From: a virus
Length of the DNA: 40,832 bases
Direction: 5' to 3' (one strand)
IMG/VR virus record: IMGVR_UViG_3300024268_000164
Location: 1-40,832 of that record
Positions 2,273-40,832 of the stretch are shown here, piece after piece; position 1 is the stretch's first letter, and the number at the start of each line of letters is the position of its first letter. The position numbers and the translations under genes are program-made. The notes below the pieces were generated by a model. It saw only the letters and a program-made list of their open reading frames with translations, made no database searches and was not told the origin of the DNA.

Positions 2273-3553
2273 CTAAAACATCCAACCATTTTTCTTGATG
2301 TATTTTTCTAATGCATAACGCATGGCATCCATCAAATGGTTAAAATCATCAATGGGCTTGTTCAGTTTGTTGTCAAACTTGTCTTTGTCCCATGTATAGT
2401 TGCTTATTTCCGTTAGGAAGTTCACACACCTTGGATGGATAATGATTTCAAGTTCCTGAATCCATTGAATACCATTCAGAATGCTATCCCTGCCCTTTTG
2501 TGCAGCTTTTACACGCAAGCCCAGGCCATTCAATTCATCAATTGATTTTGGCTCTGCTGAATCCGCTGTGATATGGTCCTTTTTATAGCCCATTTCTATG
2601 ACTGTATCTGCAATCCGTTTATTGCTCATACCTTTTTCATAAAATTCATCCCACACATACAGCTTCTTGTTCTCTATATCTAAAAAACCAACAAAAAAAG
2701 CACTTGGGTCATTGGTATATCCAAAGTCAAGACCAAATGCTGATTTTACATCTTCTGCGAATACAGGGTTTTTGGGTTTCTTCTCTGCATCCTCATATTC
2801 TTTTTTGTTTGTCAGTGTGAATTCTTCTTCTTTCCAGTTCTCATATACTAAACCATCAACAATACCCCATCCACCAAGGCCTGCCACCGCATATCTTCGT
2901 GGATTGTTCTTCTTCATGGTTTCAAATACTTTCAAATCCGCTTCATCCAACCATTCATTGCACATGTAATTGGTTGTCATTGCAAGAATATCTTCATCTT
3001 CTTCATCAAAGAATCTTTTCTTCAGCCAATGTCTTTCATTCCAAGGGTTGAATGTCAGAATAATTTGCTTGAATAACCCTTCCGGTGTCTTACCTCGGAT
3101 TGATTCATCAAGCATATTGAAATCTTCTTCCTTGGTGATTTCATAGGCTTCTTCTATCCATGCCCAACACAAATATCCTGTATCAACTGCAATGGATGTG
3201 ACTTTCAGCGGATCATCAAGCCCCCTGAAATATATCTTCTGTCCTGTGGGCTTGTATGTGGCTTCCAATGGTGACAAGGTAAAATCCCATAGGTGTTCAA
3301 CCTTCAACCGCTTTGCTGCCCATTTCAGTTCCTTATAACAGGAATCCTTCAGGGTACGGAATACTTTTCTTATAACAAGTGTATTTGCATCCTTATTCCG
3401 CATCATCATGTATATTATCCATAATGCAGTTGTTTTAGATTTCTTGGATGCTCGGCTGCCTTTACACACCTTGTATCTACCTTTGAAATTCCAAAATCGT
3501 TTATACCCCCTGCCAACTAAATTGGGAAGGTTTATATACTCCTTTTTAATCAC
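2273..3553 (-). CDS. terL: Terminase large subunit (PBSX / Terminase_3-like)
   Basis: 426 aa. Walker A-like CKGSRASKKSKT, then WIEEAYE and TFNPW motifs. GTG start overlaps the stop of the upstream ORF. Followed by the portal gene. Confidence 0.9.
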   Translation of the reverse strand: MIKKEYINLPNLVGRGYKRFWNFKGRYKVCKGSRASKKSKTTALWIIYMMMRNKDANTLVIRKVFRTLKDSCYKELKWAAKRLKVEHLWDFTLSPLEATYKPTGQKIYFRGLDDPLKVTSIAVDTGYLCWAWIEEAYEITKEEDFNMLDESIRGKTPEGLFKQIILTFNPWNERHWLKKRFFDEEDEDILAMTTNYMCNEWLDEADLKVFETMKKNNPRRYAVAGLGGWGIVDGLVYENWKEEEFTLTNKKEYEDAEKKPKNPVFAEDVKSAFGLDFGYTNDPSAFFVGFLDIENKKLYVWDEFYEKGMSNKRIADTVIEMGYKKDHITADSAEPKSIDELNGLGLRVKAAQKGRDSILNGIQWIQELEIIIHPRCVNFLTEISNYTWDKDKFDNKLNKPIDDFNHLMDAMRYALEKYIKKNGWMF

Positions 3554-3785: not shown

Positions 3786-4172
3786 TTAATCTTCCAAATC
3801 TTCTTCACCGCCAAATACAGGAATAATGAAATCCGCTTCAACCTTTTCTGTGGGCCGCTGCCCTATGGTATCACGCACATATTCCGCTGCCCTTGTATCA
3901 CCCTTCATGGCTTTCTGTATCTGTGCAATCAGGATTGCTTCCTGTACTGATATATTTTTCCCTTTGATTGCTGCAAAGTTCTTTATTTCATCCACATCCA
4001 TGCACTTGCCTGATTTCATGGACATGGAAAGCAAAGATTCCAAGGTTTCCCGGAACAGTTTCTTTTCCCTTCTTGCTTTACCGGATGCAATACCGCCCTT
4101 CTTGCCATTCTTCACGGCTTCTTCTCGGTTTTGTTCACTTGTGAATGGTGTCAAGTTTTCTTCATTTGCCAT
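3786..4172 (-). CDS. terS: Terminase small subunit (putative)
   Basis: 128 aa, upstream of terL. KNGKKGGIASGKARREKK segment is typical of Firmicutes-phage small terminases. Confidence 0.7.
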   Translation of the reverse strand: MANEENLTPFTSEQNREEAVKNGKKGGIASGKARREKKLFRETLESLLSMSMKSGKCMDVDEIKNFAAIKGKNISVQEAILIAQIQKAMKGDTRAAEYVRDTIGQRPTEKVEADFIIPVFGGEEDLED

Positions 4173-4193: not shown

Positions 4194-4964
4194 TTAGTTT
4201 TTCTTTCTGCTGTACTGATAGCCATATTTCTTGGCATTCTTTCTCAACCACTTATCAACTGCATCATCATAATCTTTGCCCTTCATCTTGGCTGTTTTTA
4301 CTGCCTTGGCAAATTCATTGGCTTTGAAATGGGTTCCCTTCTTGAATGTATAATCATACTTGCTACCACTTGCAATGATACCTTTTGACCGTCTATCCAT
4401 TGCAGTTGATAACAAATCTGCATCTGAAAAGGCACCGCCACTTGGATGGTTATGAATAATCATTGTGCTTCTGTTCCTTGATGTATTTGTGCCACCAATT
4501 GCTACACTGTGCTTTCCGCCTTTTACATACTGATGCACATATCCCTGATCATCAACTTCATATGCCCATTCACCCTTGGCCAACATGTGCTTGCTTTTAA
4601 ACTCTGCCAATGCCCCTTCAAAGGTTTTGCTTTTTATTTTTGTATTGGCATATGCAGGATGTATGGGATTGTAATTGTTCTTCTCGTCACCTGCACCACT
4701 GAAAGAAAATTCTGATTGATTGCCACCTGCACCCCGGCCACCTTCAATGGGTGGAATATACAGTGTTTCACTTCTTGCAATGATGTCCTTTACCGGCTCA
4801 CCATCCAATTCATATTCAAGGGCTTCTTCCAGTGTTTTGAATGTCTTGCCTTCACCGGTTTTCTCATTCCAAATTTCAATTGGTTTCCTGAACATGATCA
4901 CATGCTCTTTTAAGTAAAAACCATTTAATCTATTAAACATGTATCTGAAATGTTCAATTCTCAT
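4194..4964 (-). CDS. Hypothetical protein with a JAB/MPN (RadC-like) metallopeptidase motif and an internal GGRGAGG motif
   Basis: 256 aa. Residues 171-183 read HNHPSGGAFSDAD (HxH..S..D). Residues 75-81 read GGRGAGG. SD GAAAGGTGAAG precedes the ATG. Confidence 0.6.
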   Translation of the reverse strand: MRIEHFRYMFNRLNGFYLKEHVIMFRKPIEIWNEKTGEGKTFKTLEEALEYELDGEPVKDIIARSETLYIPPIEGGRGAGGNQSEFSFSGAGDEKNNYNPIHPAYANTKIKSKTFEGALAEFKSKHMLAKGEWAYEVDDQGYVHQYVKGGKHSVAIGGTNTSRNRSTMIIHNHPSGGAFSDADLLSTAMDRRSKGIIASGSKYDYTFKKGTHFKANEFAKAVKTAKMKGKDYDDAVDKWLRKNAKKYGYQYSRKKN

Positions 4965-4989
4965 TTTTCTTCACCTTTCTTTTGTACGC

Positions 4990-5017
4990 AAAAAAGGCCA
5001 AGTATTTCTACTCAGCC
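4990..5017 (-). terminator. Rho-independent terminator just upstream of the JAB-motif gene
   Basis: Minus strand reads AAAGGCTGAGTA-GAAA-TACTTGGCCTTT followed by TTTGCG. The stem is 12 bp with 2 G-U pairs and a GNRA loop. Confidence 0.6.
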
Positions 5018-5046
5018 TTTCTAAAAATTATGTAATTTGACAGCAG

Positions 5047-5082
5047 AATTGTGGATTATGCACCACAATTTCAGTTTTGCAA
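5047..5082 (-). promoter_or_regulatory. Candidate sigma-A-type promoter (TTGCAA-16-CATAAT) embedded in an 8-bp inverted repeat AATTGTGG-N8-CCACAATT
   Basis: The -35 is at 5077-5082 and the -10 at 5055-5060. The perfect inverted repeat at 5047-5070 is centred on the -10. Confidence 0.4.
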
Positions 5083-5101
5083 CTGCGTTTTCCTTCTTAA
5101 A

Positions 5102-5491
5102 CTAATTTCTGCTGTTTTGATGATAATACCATATTTTGTAAATTCTTTCAATCATCTTTTTTTCTTTTTCGTTAATATCTCTTGTGCCTTTTTCATCATG
5201 GAAGTATCCTTTGTGCGTATGCTGCATTAAACCTTCATGCTGATGTGTAAGATCAACCTGCTTGAATCGTTTATTGTTCTTATCATAGTAAGTTATGCTT
5301 TTTAGTTTATTGTCTTTATTTACTGTTACATACACCCTGCCCTTTGTCATGGTTTCCATAGGTGTGCTTGTAGAACTACCATCAGCATTTCTTACAAACT
5401 TAATATTTCCACTTTGTAATAATGTATTATATTCAGTGCCATACTTCTTGCCCTTATCACTTATGCCACTACTTGCACCCCTTCCACCCAT
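5102..5491 (-). CDS. Hypothetical protein starting MGGRGASSG, with a His-rich C-terminal part (THQHEGLMQHTHKGYFHDE)
   Basis: 129-aa ORF 8 nt downstream of the ParB-like gene. Shares the GGRGA motif with the next gene. Confidence 0.6.
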   Translation of the reverse strand: MGGRGASSGISDKGKKYGTEYNTLLQSGNIKFVRNADGSSTSTPMETMTKGRVYVTVNKDNKLKSITYYDKNNKRFKQVDLTHQHEGLMQHTHKGYFHDEKGTRDINEKEKKMIERIYKIWYYHQNSRN

Positions 5492-5499
5492 CAGCCTTT

Positions 5500-6528
5500 T
5501 TATCCTTTCATTCTTTCGGTGACTTTATTTTCAAAGTATACTGTTTTAATATTTCCATAATCATATTCAACTTTGCCACCGTATATCAGCAATGTTTTAG
5601 GCTGCAACCGCCTGATCATTTCATCAACACCGGCTTTCCATGTTTCAAAGTTGTCACTATCCCTTTTTACACCTATGGTTGATATGGACAGTGTTGATTT
5701 CTTTGGCAATCCGTCAAAGCAAAAATCAAATGTAGCTTCTTCACACCAACTGACTGTTGGAATCACCACCAATCCCATCCGCTGTGCCATCTGTCCAATC
5801 AATCTGCTTCTGTATGTGTTCCAAATCTTCATGGCAATGGGCATTTCTGTATACAGTGAAAAATCAGGTGTAAAAATACAATTGTATTCTGCCAATTTTT
5901 CAATGTATAACTGCGGTTGATTCCACACCCTTTCAAATTGGTAATCATCAACATAAAAATGAATGCCACAATCTTTGTTTTCAGATGTTAGTGCATAATT
6001 GAATCCAATAATATCATTCGGAATATATGAACACGGTTCAATTATAGGCATCTGATAATATCCTTCTGTTGAATATTCGTCATATTCATCAAGATTGTAT
6101 GCGTTTATGGTTCTTTCCCTTTCGTTGGGCTTTTCTTCCGGTTCCTCATGTTCTATAACATCAGGAATATCTTCAAAACCAAATACAGACATGTCAAAAT
6201 CAATAAGTTCATTCAGTTCTTCTGCAAGATAATCAAAATCCCATTCTGCCTTTTCTGCAACCTTGTTATCAGCAAGCCGGAAGGCCTTTATCTGTTCATC
6301 TGTCAGATCATCTGCAACAATGCAAGGCACTTCTTTCAGTTTCAGCTTCTTGGCTGCTTTGTATCTTGTATGCCCGGCAACAATTACATTGTTTTTGTCA
6401 ATGACAATGGGCACCTTGAAACCAAATTCCTTTATGGATTCCATAACATATTTTACGGCTTCATTGTTCTTCCTTGGGTTCTTATCATAAGGGATAAGGT
6501 CCGCAAGGTTCATCCGTACATTCTGCAT
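5500..6528 (-). CDS. ParB-like N-terminal (nuclease/CTPase-fold) domain protein with a DUF4417-like C-terminal domain
   Basis: N-terminus DLIPYDKNPRKN...VIDKNNVIVAGHTRYKAAKKL is the ParB/Srx signature. The C-terminal half (IHFYVDDYQFERVWN...) resembles DUF4417. I prefer the ATG at 6528, preceded by SD AAAGGTGAA. Confidence 0.75.
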   Translation of the reverse strand: MQNVRMNLADLIPYDKNPRKNNEAVKYVMESIKEFGFKVPIVIDKNNVIVAGHTRYKAAKKLKLKEVPCIVADDLTDEQIKAFRLADNKVAEKAEWDFDYLAEELNELIDFDMSVFGFEDIPDVIEHEEPEEKPNERERTINAYNLDEYDEYSTEGYYQMPIIEPCSYIPNDIIGFNYALTSENKDCGIHFYVDDYQFERVWNQPQLYIEKLAEYNCIFTPDFSLYTEMPIAMKIWNTYRSRLIGQMAQRMGLVVIPTVSWCEEATFDFCFDGLPKKSTLSISTIGVKRDSDNFETWKAGVDEMIRRLQPKTLLIYGGKVEYDYGNIKTVYFENKVTERMKG

Positions 6529-6554
6529 GCTGTTCACCTTTATCTTCTGTAATC

Positions 6555-6593: not shown

Positions 6594-6707
6594 ACAGGAA
6601 AAGGCACCCCCATGTGGAAGTGCCCTTGGTTCATCATTTTTTGTTATTATAATAATATCATAAAAAATTACAGAACAAACACCCTTTTTTTCATCTTTTT
6701 CTACCCA

Positions 6708-7079
6708 CTATTTCATTTTTTCTTCCGGTGCCTGATAAGGTTCAGGAAGCGGTTGCCATGCAATAAAACGAAAAGCATTAGGAAAATATGAATCATTTAC
6801 ACACCAATCTTCATTTACATCATAATAACCTGTTTCAACCATTCCATCTTCTGTTTGGAAAATTACAGTTTGATTATGATTCGGCAAGTTTTCATCACAA
6901 GGAATCCAACTGTTTGCTATTGGTGTATTTTCTATTGCCGTATATACTCCCCTTACTTTATCCTCAAATGGCTCATATCCCATATCTATAAGTGCTTTCT
7001 GAACTGATAACATGACAGCACTTTCCAACAGCAATCTATCTTCTTTTCGCATTTTTCCCAAGATTTCATTCACTTCCAT
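6708..7079 (-). CDS. DUF551-like protein (paralog 2)
   Basis: Contains SWIPCDENLP and ends ..AWQPLPEPYQ, the DUF551 hallmark. Tandem with 7085..7501. Confidence 0.7.
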   Translation of the reverse strand: MEVNEILGKMRKEDRLLLESAVMLSVQKALIDMGYEPFEDKVRGVYTAIENTPIANSWIPCDENLPNHNQTVIFQTEDGMVETGYYDVNEDWCVNDSYFPNAFRFIAWQPLPEPYQAPEEKMK

Positions 7080-7084
7080 AACAT

Positions 7085-7501
7085 TTATTCTCCTTCCGGC
7101 TGATAAGGTTCAGGAAGCGGTTGCCATGCCAAAACATCCTGCCCTTCCCACTGCATAGGACCATTTTCAAACCATGCATACGGTTTTAAGTTGTTTCCCC
7201 ATTGGTCTGCGGAACCAAAACAAGGCCGTTCCATAGCTTGCAATTCTTCCTTAGTTTTCCCTTTTCTAAATTCTACAACACTTATACCTGAACAATGTCC
7301 ATTGTCACAATACGCAAGAACTTCCTGACCATCTTCCGGCAATCTCTCACTGCAAGGAATCCAACCGCCATTGTGTTCTTCTGCAAGTTGTTTGACGATT
7401 TCGATTGCACCATCTATGCACTGTCTGTCTAAATTGTCGTGGTCTTCAAAATTTCTGTATTCTTCCAATCTACCAATCAGCTTTTCTATAAATTCTTTCA
7501 T
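7085..7501 (-). CDS. DUF551-like protein (paralog 1)
   Basis: Contains GWIPCSERLPEDG and ends ..AWQPLPEPYQ. Shares a 30-nt identical 3' segment with the paralog. Confidence 0.7.
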   Translation of the reverse strand: MKEFIEKLIGRLEEYRNFEDHDNLDRQCIDGAIEIVKQLAEEHNGGWIPCSERLPEDGQEVLAYCDNGHCSGISVVEFRKGKTKEELQAMERPCFGSADQWGNNLKPYAWFENGPMQWEGQDVLAWQPLPEPYQPEGE

Positions 7502-10124: not shown

Positions 10125-10586
10125 CTATTCTCCTTTCCTTTCATCCAATGCCTTCTGCACCTGGGCCAATGCCCTTTGGTGTAGCCCACCTGATACCCAC
10201 TTGTATGTGAAATTCATATCAACTGCAATCCGTTCCCATGTGTTGAAAACAACCCTGTCCTTTTCTTCATCATAGGTTCCTATGTACCGCTTATGCAGAA
10301 GCCGGCTGCAATCAGCATCACATGCTTCATCAATCAGCTTCCGGGCTTCATTTCTCATATCAATGAAGCGGTCAATTTCTTCATTCAGTTCTTTCTTCAG
10401 GTCAACAATCTTCCCAACAATGTCTGCCATTTTATCCTGGGAAGAAGATGCAGGCACCCTTTCTTCCCCCATCACTGATGTTGTCCTTTTTGCAAGTGCA
10501 TCCAAGGTTGCAATTTCATCAATCCGGGCATCAATGTGGGCATCAATCTTCTTTATCCTTTCCAAATATGTTCTTGCTTTCATCAT
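10125..10586 (-). CDS. Sigma-70 region-4-like phage transcription regulator (DUF1492/ArpU-RinA-like, tentative)
   Basis: The pattern YLERIKKID..I...IDEI..L...A.R.TS......V..S...DKMADIVGKIVDLKKELNEEIDRFIDMRNEARKLID....D..RLLHKRYI....W..IA.DMN.....V....H.RAL matches the family as I remember it. Confidence 0.5.
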   Translation of the reverse strand: MMKARTYLERIKKIDAHIDARIDEIATLDALAKRTTSVMGEERVPASSSQDKMADIVGKIVDLKKELNEEIDRFIDMRNEARKLIDEACDADCSRLLHKRYIGTYDEEKDRVVFNTWERIAVDMNFTYKWVSGGLHQRALAQVQKALDERKGE

Positions 10587-39442: not shown

Positions 39443-40351
39443 TTATTTGATTCTGATTTTCTGCCCAACATAGATTCTATTGGGATTTTTAATGCCATTG
39501 ATTTTGGCAAGTTCCTGATATGTGGTGCCGTACTGCTCGGCAATCTCTGCAAGGGTATCATCCTGCTTTACCGTGTAATACTTCACCTTTTCATCATCTT
39601 CCAACATTGCATTGACAATGGCCTGAACTGCTTCATAGTCATATCCGGCAGTGGTCAGGTTGTTTTCCCTTTCAATGCCTACACCCCACAGGCCAAGAAT
39701 GACTTCTTCAGCAAGTTCTTCATTGCTCTTTGCCGGTGCTTCTGTCTTTGTTACATTTCCGCTGATTTCACCGGGAAAATCTCTGTAACAGATATTCACA
39801 TCCACATTTCCATTGATTCCGGGAATGGAACCCTTGGAAGTGTACTGCCACATGTCATAGGTGCCACTGATGCCTGTGGGCTTGTTCTTGCTGTACTTTG
39901 CAACCCACTTGGTGTACCGGTCAAGGCCATTCTTCAGATAGACACCCCACCAATTCTGATTTGCATATATACCGCACCAATACCCTTCTTCTTCAATCAT
40001 GGTGCAAAATACATGTGCCCTTTCAACAGCACCATTCTGTGTGCCCTGTTCTTCCAGGTCATAATATACTGGGAAGGAAAGCTTGCCCTTGTAAGGTTCC
40101 AACAGTCTAAGAACATGCAGTGCTTCACTCTTTGCCCCTGCCATTGTCTTTGCGTATGAATACAGATAAACACCAAAAGGAATGCCATGCTTGATGCAGG
40201 CTTCCACATTCTCTTTGAATCTCGGATCATCCTGACTTCTGATGTCTGAACCAAAACCACACCGGATGATTGCACCATCAATGTGGTCCTTTACCTTTGC
40301 CCAATTGATTGTGCCCTGATGCTTTGACACATCAATCACTTTCATTTCCAC
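39443..40351 (-). CDS. Endolysin: GH25 muramidase + CW_7-like repeat + LysM
   Basis: [26 protein letters not shown] matches GH25. [33 protein letters not shown] matches CW_7. [30 protein letters not shown] matches LysM. Confidence 0.9.
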
Positions 40352-40542
40352 TATGATTCACCCCCTTTTGTGATGCTATCCTTGGCCACCTGTGTGCCAA
40401 AGTAGAATGAAATAATCATTGTGTAAATGGTCAGGAATTCTGTTTCCAACTGTCCAACAACAGCCAAATAACAGAACACACCGGTCAATGCAAATGTGAC
40501 AATGGATTTCACTGTCAATAACTTCTGCATTCTCTCTTTCAT
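40351..40542 (-). CDS. Holin (63 aa, two TM segments)
   Basis: TM segments [19 protein letters not shown] and [14 protein letters not shown] with a charged C-terminus. Overlaps the endolysin start. Confidence 0.75.
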
Positions 40543-40574
40543 TTCACATACCCCTTTCTTTGTTTTTTTGCATA

Positions 40575-40832
40575 TTAAAAGGCACCCTTTTGGGATGCCT
40601 TCAAATACTTCTTTTGATAATCTTCAAAATCCTTGGCCTTGTCCAAGCCATGATATGCTGCCCTTTTCTTCAGGGTTTCCAATTCTTCATCATCAAGTGC
40701 CCATCTTGCCCTTTGAAGCAATGCACACCGGCAATTGCAATCTTCTTCTGCCCTGCCGAATGCACCCGGATAATCTGCTTTCATTCCTGATACTTCAAAG
40801 GATTCACCCACTTCCCGAATTTGTCCGTCAAG
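40575..40832 (-). CDS. C-terminal part of the MuF-family minor head protein (same gene as 1..817; 40706..40832 duplicates 1..127)
   Basis: ...DYPGAFGRAEEDCNCRCALLQRARWALDDEELETLKK... with the stop at 40575. The track's GTG start is internal to the real gene. Confidence 0.85.
   Translation of the reverse strand, partial: LDGQIREVGESFEVSGMKADYPGAFGRAEEDCNCRCALLQRARWALDDEELETLKKRAAYHGLDKAKDFEDYQKKYLKASQKGAF
40706..40832. repeat. Right copy of the exact 127-nt terminal overlap
   Basis: Identical to 1..127. Confidence 0.97.

Follow-up and report, generated by a model that had tools for sequence, protein, structure and literature searches.

A short GGRG peptide shared by two neighbouring phage genes recurs in diverse effector-like families encoded beside DUF4417

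Introduction

What a short glycine-rich peptide does when it is carried by two neighbouring, otherwise unrelated phage genes is the question raised by the locus described here. The locus lies in a stretch of 40,832 nucleotides (nt) from IMG/VR virus record IMGVR_UViG_3300024268_000164; this whole stretch is called the window, and coordinates are those of the window unless a related locus is named. On its minus strand, between a gene for a protein with ParB and DUF4417 domains and a terS-like gene, two genes encode proteins of 129 and 256 amino acids (aa), both of which fall in PHROGs of unknown function and both of which contain the peptide GGRGA. A first-pass annotation, made from the sequence alone, had noticed the shared peptide and had offered two explanations, one in which a JAB-type metallopeptidase domain of the 256-aa protein cuts between GG and RGA, and another in which both proteins are cargo or effectors carried by the virion.

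The two genes are best read as belonging to a polymorphic group of phage modules that stand alone and resemble effectors or toxins. Phage-borne polymorphic effectors are known as a kind, and what appears to be new is the peptide, referred to below as the tag, together with its presumed DUF4417 partner: a stretch of four to eight residues marks around 38 unrelated effector families in hundreds of gut and streptococcal phages, and it is tied to DUF4417. No mention of the GGRG motif or of a function for DUF4417 was found in a search of the literature, and the tag is not described in the papers on polyvalent proteins and MuF toxins (PMC5512222, PMC5576092).

Results

The tag in the two families

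The 129-aa gene (5102..5491, minus strand; phrog_9479), a candidate effector gene belonging to the commonest tagged family, begins MGGRGASSG, as the first-pass annotation had read it. Its ATG lies 8 nt past the stop codon of the DUF4417 gene, and the tag GGRGASSG occupies residues 2–9 (5465..5488, minus strand). In the 256-aa open reading frame (ORF; 4194..4964, minus strand) the tag is internal. An N-terminal part ending ...LYIPPIE is followed by GGRGAGGN at residues 75–82 (4719..4742, minus strand), at the junction between an N-terminal domain and a JAB-like module; the earlier reading of this junction was correct except for the length of the N-terminal part, which is 74 residues and not about 73. 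The start of this gene at 4964 has a good ribosome-binding site, AAAGGTGA, and one gene caller chose Met24 instead (protein P0001).

Across all six translated frames of the window there are only two GGRG peptides, both of them encoded by this gene pair. The expected number of GGRGA is 0.04, and the observed two were not attained in any of 200 shuffles. Searches at E ≤ 1e-3 gave 262 homologs of the 256-aa protein and 1543 of the 129-aa protein, and conservation was assessed in alignments of 120 and 121 of these, respectively. G75, G76, R77 and G78 are each conserved in at least 90% of the 256-aa family, in which the residue preceding the GG pair is freely variable (E, N, S, D, C, K or T). The consensus of this family, GGRGA(S/G)SG, coincides with the N-terminal sequence of the 129-aa family, in which G3 and G9 are invariant and at least 90% of members keep each of G2, R4, G5, S7 and S8. 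The shared motif is therefore real, exceeding expectation in the window and holding among the homologs of both families. It is retained, together with HNHP..FS..D, at 32–37% identity in ORF29 of pneumococcal phage MM1 and in Javan394_0021.

When the profiles of the two families were compared with each other, only the 12 columns of the motif aligned, which identifies the tag as a short linear motif common to proteins that are otherwise unrelated. At the DNA level the 12 nt encoding GGRG take 66 versions in 182 contexts, with the arginine encoded by AGA or CGN. The codons thus vary freely, and it is the peptide on which selection acts.

Some occurrences of similar sequence were set apart. The Walker A sequence GGRGS(G/L/T/I)KSS in TerL of many related phages (e.g., locus L004 at 8788, L008 at 11266 and L029 at 11223) was taken as an ordinary P-loop and excluded; the TerL of the window does not have this variant. 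In two related loci (L021 at ~6620–6650 and L022 at ~10200–10230) the reading frame is broken within the poly-G run that encodes E-GG-GRG at the junction of the N-terminal and JAB-like domains. These breaks probably reflect homopolymer sequencing error, and slippage at the run is conceivable; a programmed frameshift was rejected, given that the breaks sit in the poly-G run and differ in direction.

The tag among related phages

The survey of the tag covered ~190 pooled related phage loci, fetched with either family, and took M-G(G/S)RG as the pattern of a tagged start. It yielded 262 tagged ORFs in ~38 unrelated clusters. The tag stands directly after the start codon in 187 of them, after a 74-aa N-terminal domain in 36 (all of the JAB-like family), after a short leader resembling those cleaved by the host protease Prp in 30, and in another position in the remaining nine. 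Members of the 129-aa family are stand-alone proteins in 114 of 114 instances.

One representative of each tagged cluster was compared with Pfam. Matches were obtained to ADPrib_exo_Tox (E 1.3e-13), Gln_amidase or "papain fold toxin 1" (E 1.8e-11 and 1.3e-13), PBECR3 (E 6e-9), PBECR2 (E 2.9e-4) and DUF6883 (E 1.2e-8), and the majority of clusters have no known domain. The repertoire of the tagged proteins is that of the MuF toxins and polyvalent proteins, here in the form of solo modules.

The leaders that precede the tag (MKLNIQLF, MKLDIQLF, MVEYNLQFF, MKINLQFF and similar, followed by GGRG) match the cleavage motif MLxx(D/N)LQ(F/L)F'A of ribosomal protein L27 and Prp (PMC9405229). They are found in relatives of both window families, and scaffold-like proteins in the related loci bear the same leader. 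The phage proteins known so far to be processed by Prp are capsid, scaffold and tail proteins, among them the capsid and scaffolding proteins of Staphylococcus aureus phage 80alpha (PMC5744158). No leader of the Prp type is present on the two window proteins or on the real ORFs of the window. As judged from the leader sequences, Prp would be expected to cut at F|GG, and the mature protein would start with GGRG after removal either of the leader or of the initiator methionine, which is followed by Gly at position 2.

A similar basic motif, (A/L)KK.GY(K/T/Q)(F/Y), was also observed at the C-terminus of several unrelated tagged families (window 4194–4240 and loci L032, L050, L071 and L101), with AKKYGYQYSRKKN, AKKNGYKFLSL and LKKRGYKFRNG as examples. 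This hints at a second element common to tagged families at the opposite end of the protein.

Linkage to DUF4417

The gene upstream of the tagged pair (5500..6537, minus strand) encodes 345 aa with matches to Pfam DUF4417 (E 1.6e-72) and ParB_N (E 2.4e-9). The gene coordinates confirm that the pair lies between this gene and the terS-like gene. When related loci were instead collected with DUF4417 as the anchor, 71 of the 79 loci had one to three tagged ORFs immediately past the DUF4417 gene, with the tag beginning a median of 8 nt after the DUF4417 stop codon. Tagged genes always had a DUF4417 gene next to them, and the DUF4417 proteins in question occur both with and without a ParB domain.

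Three arrangements were seen. In this window and in streptococcal phages the order is DUF4417, one or more tagged genes, terS, terL, portal, MuF. Another phage group has terL, portal, two tagged genes, DUF4417, a further tagged gene, MuF and the major capsid protein, and the third order is terL, portal, MuF, DUF4417, tagged gene.

An alignment of DUF4417 (A5) has many invariant polar residues (H48, D52, D53, Y54, Q55, R58, S82, Y84, N95, R98 and Q107), and no homology of the domain to any enzyme or solved structure was found. ParB-fold domains bind diverse nucleoside triphosphates (NTPs), and the phage fusions of such domains to DUF4417 are uncharacterised (bioRxiv 10.1101/2025.10.10.680097).

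The annotation of existing genomes is affected at this point of the locus. The annotated starts of A25 gp23 (L003, 4001–4411) and Str01 STR01_54 (L200, 1501–1911) lie at an internal methionine (MSDKG...), so that both reference genomes miss the tag MGGRGASSG, which starts at an ATG overlapping the final part of the DUF4417 gene. The label "DNA modification methylase" on Javan394_0022 (L002, 2704–3804) is probably wrong as well: the protein has a DUF4417 profile match at E 1e-94 and is likely to be of the ParB-DUF4417 kind.

The 256-aa protein

Residues 168–184 of the 256-aa protein read MIIHNHPSGGAFSDADL. The first-pass annotation had recognised an HxH signature here, which is present, over a span that it gave as one residue too long (168–185). 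Among the 120 homologs H171, N172, H173, P174, F179, S180 and D183 are invariant and E132 (codon 4569–4571, minus strand) is at least 90% conserved, so that E132 with H171, H173, S180 and D183 makes up the metal-binding signature E...HxH...S..D. The part with residues 171–183, HNHPSGGAFSDAD, is encoded by 4416..4454 (minus strand). The spacer from histidine to serine has 6 residues in the window protein and 6–8 across the wider family, vs. the canonical 7, which upholds the earlier description of a JAB-type signature with a spacer one residue short.

Nothing significant was found for either window protein in the Pfam, NCBIfam and PDB sequence searches, and the 256-aa protein had no Pfam match at E ≤ 1. 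Across the 120 family members Pfam gave weak matches only (RadC in 8, Prok-JAB in 14, VanY in 24, M24 in 16); RadC or Prok-JAB was weakly matched by 22 members and by none directly at the Pfam threshold. The profile of the family, searched against 1.84 billion representative sequences, did match protein P0379 at E 3.5e-20. This protein of 1232 aa, encoded after the portal gene of another phage, contains a MuF domain (weak match), a DRAT-type ADP-ribosyltransferase (ART) and four JAB-like copies, and it matches Pfam RadC with 28.8 bits, above the cut-off of 22.1.

A model of the 256-aa protein made with AlphaFold2 (AF2) predicts one compact unit (predicted local distance difference test, pLDDT, 91; predicted template modelling score, pTM, 0.88). 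Foldseek found no match to it in the PDB at E ≤ 1e-3; the top entry was RadC (2qlc; E 0.23, probability 0.54), followed by the MPN domains of Prp8 and eIF3h. Against BFVD there were 16 matches at E ≤ 1e-3, mostly "Minor capsid protein" entries of 485–633 aa, and further down came a RadC-like JAB (E 5e-3, probability 0.98), an MPN entry (E 2.4e-2, 0.97) and deubiquitinase and metalloprotease entries. Because of the conserved residue set, the structure matches and the profile link to P0379, we accept a predicted JAB domain of a divergent RadC type, similar to those that serve as effector modules in MuF and polyvalent proteins. This candidate effector domain covers residues ~100–256 (4197..4667, minus strand) and has an extra C-terminal helical part that ends KKYGY.Y.

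The 74-aa N-terminal domain (4743..4964, minus strand) is optional. Many JAB-like homologs are only 180–200 aa long, start MGGRG or MGSRG, and align from about profile position 75 at their own residue 2, which means that the GG pair belongs to the downstream module. Further homologs have a Prp-like leader in place of the domain, and a second JAB-like family (L071, L076) likewise starts M-GGRG. In one contig the N-terminal domain and the JAB part are two genes and the tag is deleted. The domain was seen only with the JAB-like family. Its predicted secondary structure is an α-helix, four β-strands and two α-helices, and the AF2 model packs it against the catalytic domain. The first-pass annotation had raised the possibility of a β-grasp fold for residues 1–76, and neither this order of elements nor the assignment of the GG pair to the downstream module agrees with it. 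Model confidence is lowest at the GGRGAGGN tag (pLDDT 69–79). The N-terminal domain may act as a pro-domain, or its role may be inhibitory or accessory.

Two related observations concern other proteins. P0307 (247 aa) is a natural fusion of an N-terminal ParB domain to a JAB-like domain, without the tag and without DUF4417. In large head-module proteins of other phages (L109, 4607–14975; L110–L118) modules are set off by the delimiter KGG(E/P/L/H)GSG(I/N/S)xGH(R/K)T. Each module of P0379 and of the proteins encoded near it is preceded by it in the form KGG(E/P/L)GSGIxGH(R/K)T, a neighbouring protein of 870 aa starts M-GGEGSGIPGH, and the delimiter also occurs in other viral contigs. It may be a polyprotein processing site, and with modules that begin GG-x-G-S-G it looks like the logic of the tag. 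No DUF4417 was present in the sampled stretches of loci bearing this delimiter, and for this reason the two motifs are not equated.

The 129-aa protein

The AF2 model of the 129-aa protein is all-β with a C-terminal helix (pLDDT 77), a histidine-rich domain, and Foldseek against the PDB returned noise only, the best being a SidI fragment at E 0.45. Y54, H85 and H93 are invariant in the family. Eight of 31 members match Ntox24 (PF15529) collinearly but below its Pfam cut-off, with residues 43–112 aligned to model positions 13–85. Ntox24 is an all-β domain with conserved Y, H and H and is among the toxins trafficked by MuF (Zhang et al., PMC3482391), suggesting that the 129-aa protein is possibly Ntox24-like.

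Discussion

A proposed recognition handle for solo effectors

The account that we favour, tentatively and at slightly under an even chance, is that the tagged proteins are solo effector modules whose mature N-terminal GGRG serves as a recognition handle for DUF4417 and/or the head machinery, most likely for loading into the capsid and co-injection. The tag, G-G-R-G plus three or four small residues, would form the mature N-terminus of the module, exposed by removal of the initiator methionine in the 129-aa protein or by removal of a leader by a host protease of the Prp type in its relatives; in the 256-aa family it would instead mark the junction behind the accessory domain of 74 aa, itself optional. 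Binding of the tag by the co-translated DUF4417 protein, by the machinery of head assembly or by both would route the effectors, most likely, into the capsid, from which they would enter the next host together with the DNA. Such a system would be a trans-acting counterpart both of toxins fused covalently to MuF and of the T4 internal proteins with their capsid-targeting sequence. The alternative of the first-pass annotation in which both proteins are cargo or effectors is the one preferred: ART, glutamine-deamidase and PBECR domains all occur behind the tag, and MuF fusions contain the JAB-like domain too. The cut by Prp at F|GG, binding by DUF4417 or a head protein, and the packaging and injection of tagged proteins are what we infer.

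Several observations weigh against this account. Liquid chromatography–tandem mass spectrometry of virions of the S. pyogenes phage Str01, the only data set found in a literature search for virion proteomes of module-carrying phages, identified 12 proteins, among them MuF with an exponentially modified protein abundance index of 0.21. Neither the 129-aa-family homolog APZ81907 nor the DUF4417 protein APZ81899 was among the 12, in an experiment of low sensitivity; if these proteins are packaged, they are present in few copies. The MuF toxin of phage SM1 (gp35) does not have the GGRG motif. The residue known to follow the Prp cut (P1') is alanine and not glycine. In the 256-aa family the tag is internal to what is predicted to be one compact unit, so that a free N-terminus there would need cleavage; the tag may be processed by some protease. 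Lastly, the Ntox24 matches of the 129-aa family stay below the Pfam threshold (21 bits at best vs. 24), and the window protein itself has no match. A related idea, that the tag marks the joints at which toxins are fused to MuF, was rejected, given that SM1 gp35 does not have it and the MuF paper mentions no linker motif.

A more ambitious form of the handle account is also conceivable, in which DUF4417, with or without a ParB-type NTP-binding domain, and a free GGRG constitute a modular trans-acting cargo system. The tag would be recognised and possibly covalently modified, coupling the cargo to the packaging machinery or to DNA, and interchangeable toxins and anti-defence enzymes would be taken up by the capsid and injected. 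We regard this full version as rather unlikely; were it true, eight residues of tag would suffice for loading arbitrary proteins into these Firmicutes phages, and DUF4417 would acquire a function.

Competing explanations

The competing explanation that survives best, itself clearly unlikely, makes DUF4417 an enzyme and the tag its substrate. DUF4417 would modify or process an exposed GGRG(A/S)SS, for instance by nucleotidylation or phosphorylation of the N-terminal amine, the arginine or a serine, or by ligation to another molecule, and this modification, not capsid loading, would be the purpose of the tag; the producing cell itself, late in infection, may be where the effectors are active. 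Such a pairing agrees with a linkage that is near-obligate in both directions and with the overlap of start and stop codons, which suggests translational coupling. The many invariant polar residues of DUF4417 are as expected of an enzyme, the NTP binding of ParB-fold domains is in keeping with it (bioRxiv 10.1101/2025.10.10.680097), and so is the finding that neither tagged homolog nor DUF4417 protein was detected in Str01 virions. However, the searches that related DUF4417 to no enzyme or solved structure speak against it, the ParB domain is often missing (e.g., in A25 gp22), and delivery is a better fit to the toxin content, to the placement of tagged genes between portal and MuF that one group of phages shows, and to Prp leaders, which are typical of virion proteins. 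The explanation is, moreover, compatible with capsid loading and does not exclude it.

Cleavage of GG|RGA by the JAB domain, the other alternative of the first-pass annotation, is highly improbable. It would free the 74-aa N-terminal domain as a ubiquitin-like protein with Gly-Gly at its end, with the 129-aa protein as a processed-like form or a second substrate. Classical JAB enzymes cut after Gly-Gly, and the 256-aa family has retained every residue of the JAMM-type set. The delimiter KGGxGSGIxGH before each of the four JAB-like modules of P0379 is polyprotein-like, and the contig in which the N-terminal domain and JAB part are separate genes would also suit such a cut. The distribution of the tag argues otherwise: it is N-terminal in ~38 families, and among 80 loci collected with the 129-aa family as anchor only four have a JAB-like gene within 10 kb. 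JAB-like homologs starting M-GGRG have no N-terminal domain to release, the Prp-type leaders put the cut before GG (F|GG) and not after it, the residue before GG varies freely, and the order of secondary structure in the N-terminal domain is not that of a β-grasp. In addition, JABs of the RadC clade have been argued to lack the groove for a ubiquitin tail and probably to act on nucleic acids (PMC5512222).

Least credible of all is a tag without function of its own, which would be either a flexible linker of Gly and Ser or a border that stays constant while recombining cassettes exchange their 3' parts at a common 5' sequence. In its favour, the array is highly polymorphic, with one to three cassettes per locus, and the swapping of cassettes at conserved junctions is established for polymorphic toxin systems (PMC3482391). 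Against it, the DNA is not conserved (the arginine alone drawing on two codon families), a mere linker would not retain an invariant arginine between glycines, and the tag holds its exact N-terminal place after methionine or a cleavable leader in unrelated families.

Relation to known systems

Toxins and anti-defence proteins delivered by phages are known mainly as fusions to structural proteins (MuF and polyvalent proteins) or from a few cases in model phages, namely the T4 internal proteins and P1 Dar. The T4 internal proteins IPI, IPII and IPIII and the variable IP locus share an N-terminal capsid-targeting sequence, MKTYQEFIAE, which is removed by the phage prohead protease after targeting, and the proteins act against the host early in infection. 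The tagged families are alike in being hypervariable, unrelated small proteins with one short N-terminal peptide and a mature N-terminus that a protease would define, and they too would act against the host early. Here, in contrast, the tag appears to stay on as the mature N-terminus, the leader, if any, is of the host Prp type, and packaging is a prediction.

A parallel in hosts and genome position exists with the polymorphic MuF toxins that temperate phages of Firmicutes carry (Jamet et al., 2017, PMC5576092), which are encoded in the same head and packaging module and draw on the same repertoire of C-terminal domains (ART, nucleases and RNases, metallopeptidase-like domains, Ntox24). The 256-aa JAB-like domain matches the C-terminal extensions of "minor capsid proteins" in structure and a MuF-ART-JAB protein in sequence. 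However, the window proteins have no MuF domain and are encoded before terS, the MuF of the window is a separate short protein, and neither the tag nor the DUF4417 neighbour seen here has been described for MuF toxins. With polyvalent proteins (Iyer et al., 2017, PMC5512222) the tagged families have effector types in common (RadC JAB, ART, PBECR, ParB), and both are encoded beside virion genes. Polyvalent proteins have 2–15 domains per chain, whereas each window protein has a single effector module; solo PBECR domains in phages have been noted in the same paper, which does not mention the tag, the linkage to DUF4417 or the Gly-rich delimiters of P0379.

The individual elements also differ from their nearest counterparts. 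The 256-aa protein shares HNHPSG...S..D and an upstream glutamate with RadC-like JABs (PF04002), of which 2qlc was the top structural match in the PDB, but differs from them in its spacer of 6 (6–8 in the family) rather than 7, in the extra C-terminal helical part, and in that no family member reaches the Pfam threshold. Like the 80alpha proteins processed by Prp (PMC5744158), relatives of both window families have an M..(N/D)(L/I)Q(F/L)F leader, here before the tag, whereas the window proteins do not, and the residue after the putative cut is Gly, not Ala. If the tag is a signal for delivery or handling, new phage effectors, of which most lack a known domain, could be found by a simple sequence criterion. 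The signal would also give the first functional hypothesis for DUF4417 and its ParB fusions, and a short tag of this kind might serve to load proteins into Firmicutes phages.

Other features of the locus

The spacer between the 129-aa and 256-aa genes (4965..5101, minus strand) is 137 nt long. The first-pass annotation had placed a promoter-like element and a terminator before the 256-aa gene. A hairpin followed by a U run is indeed present, with a predicted folding energy of −31.5 kcal/mol (z −2.5), and the promoter-like hexamers are no more frequent than expected by chance.

Downstream of the pair lie the terS-like gene (3786..4172, minus strand; phrog_2412, E 2.9e-27), with which the packaging module starts, terL (2273–3553) and the portal gene (774–2285). 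As a phage contig the window is circular: its two ends (1–773 and 40352–40832) overlap, each of them encoding the peptide LDGQIREVGESF...CALLQRA. A short MuF gene, similar to SPP1 gp7, bridges the contig junction directly after the portal gene. Between it and the scaffolding gene, in the head module and not in a lysis cassette, lies a gene for an endolysin-like protein of 302 aa (39443–40351, minus strand), which is matched by PHROG endolysin families and has C-terminal repeats that by eye are LysM-like. Two adjacent paralogous ORFs at 6708–7079 and 7085–7501 (minus strand) both end ...WQPLPEPYQ(A)PE and match phrog_924.

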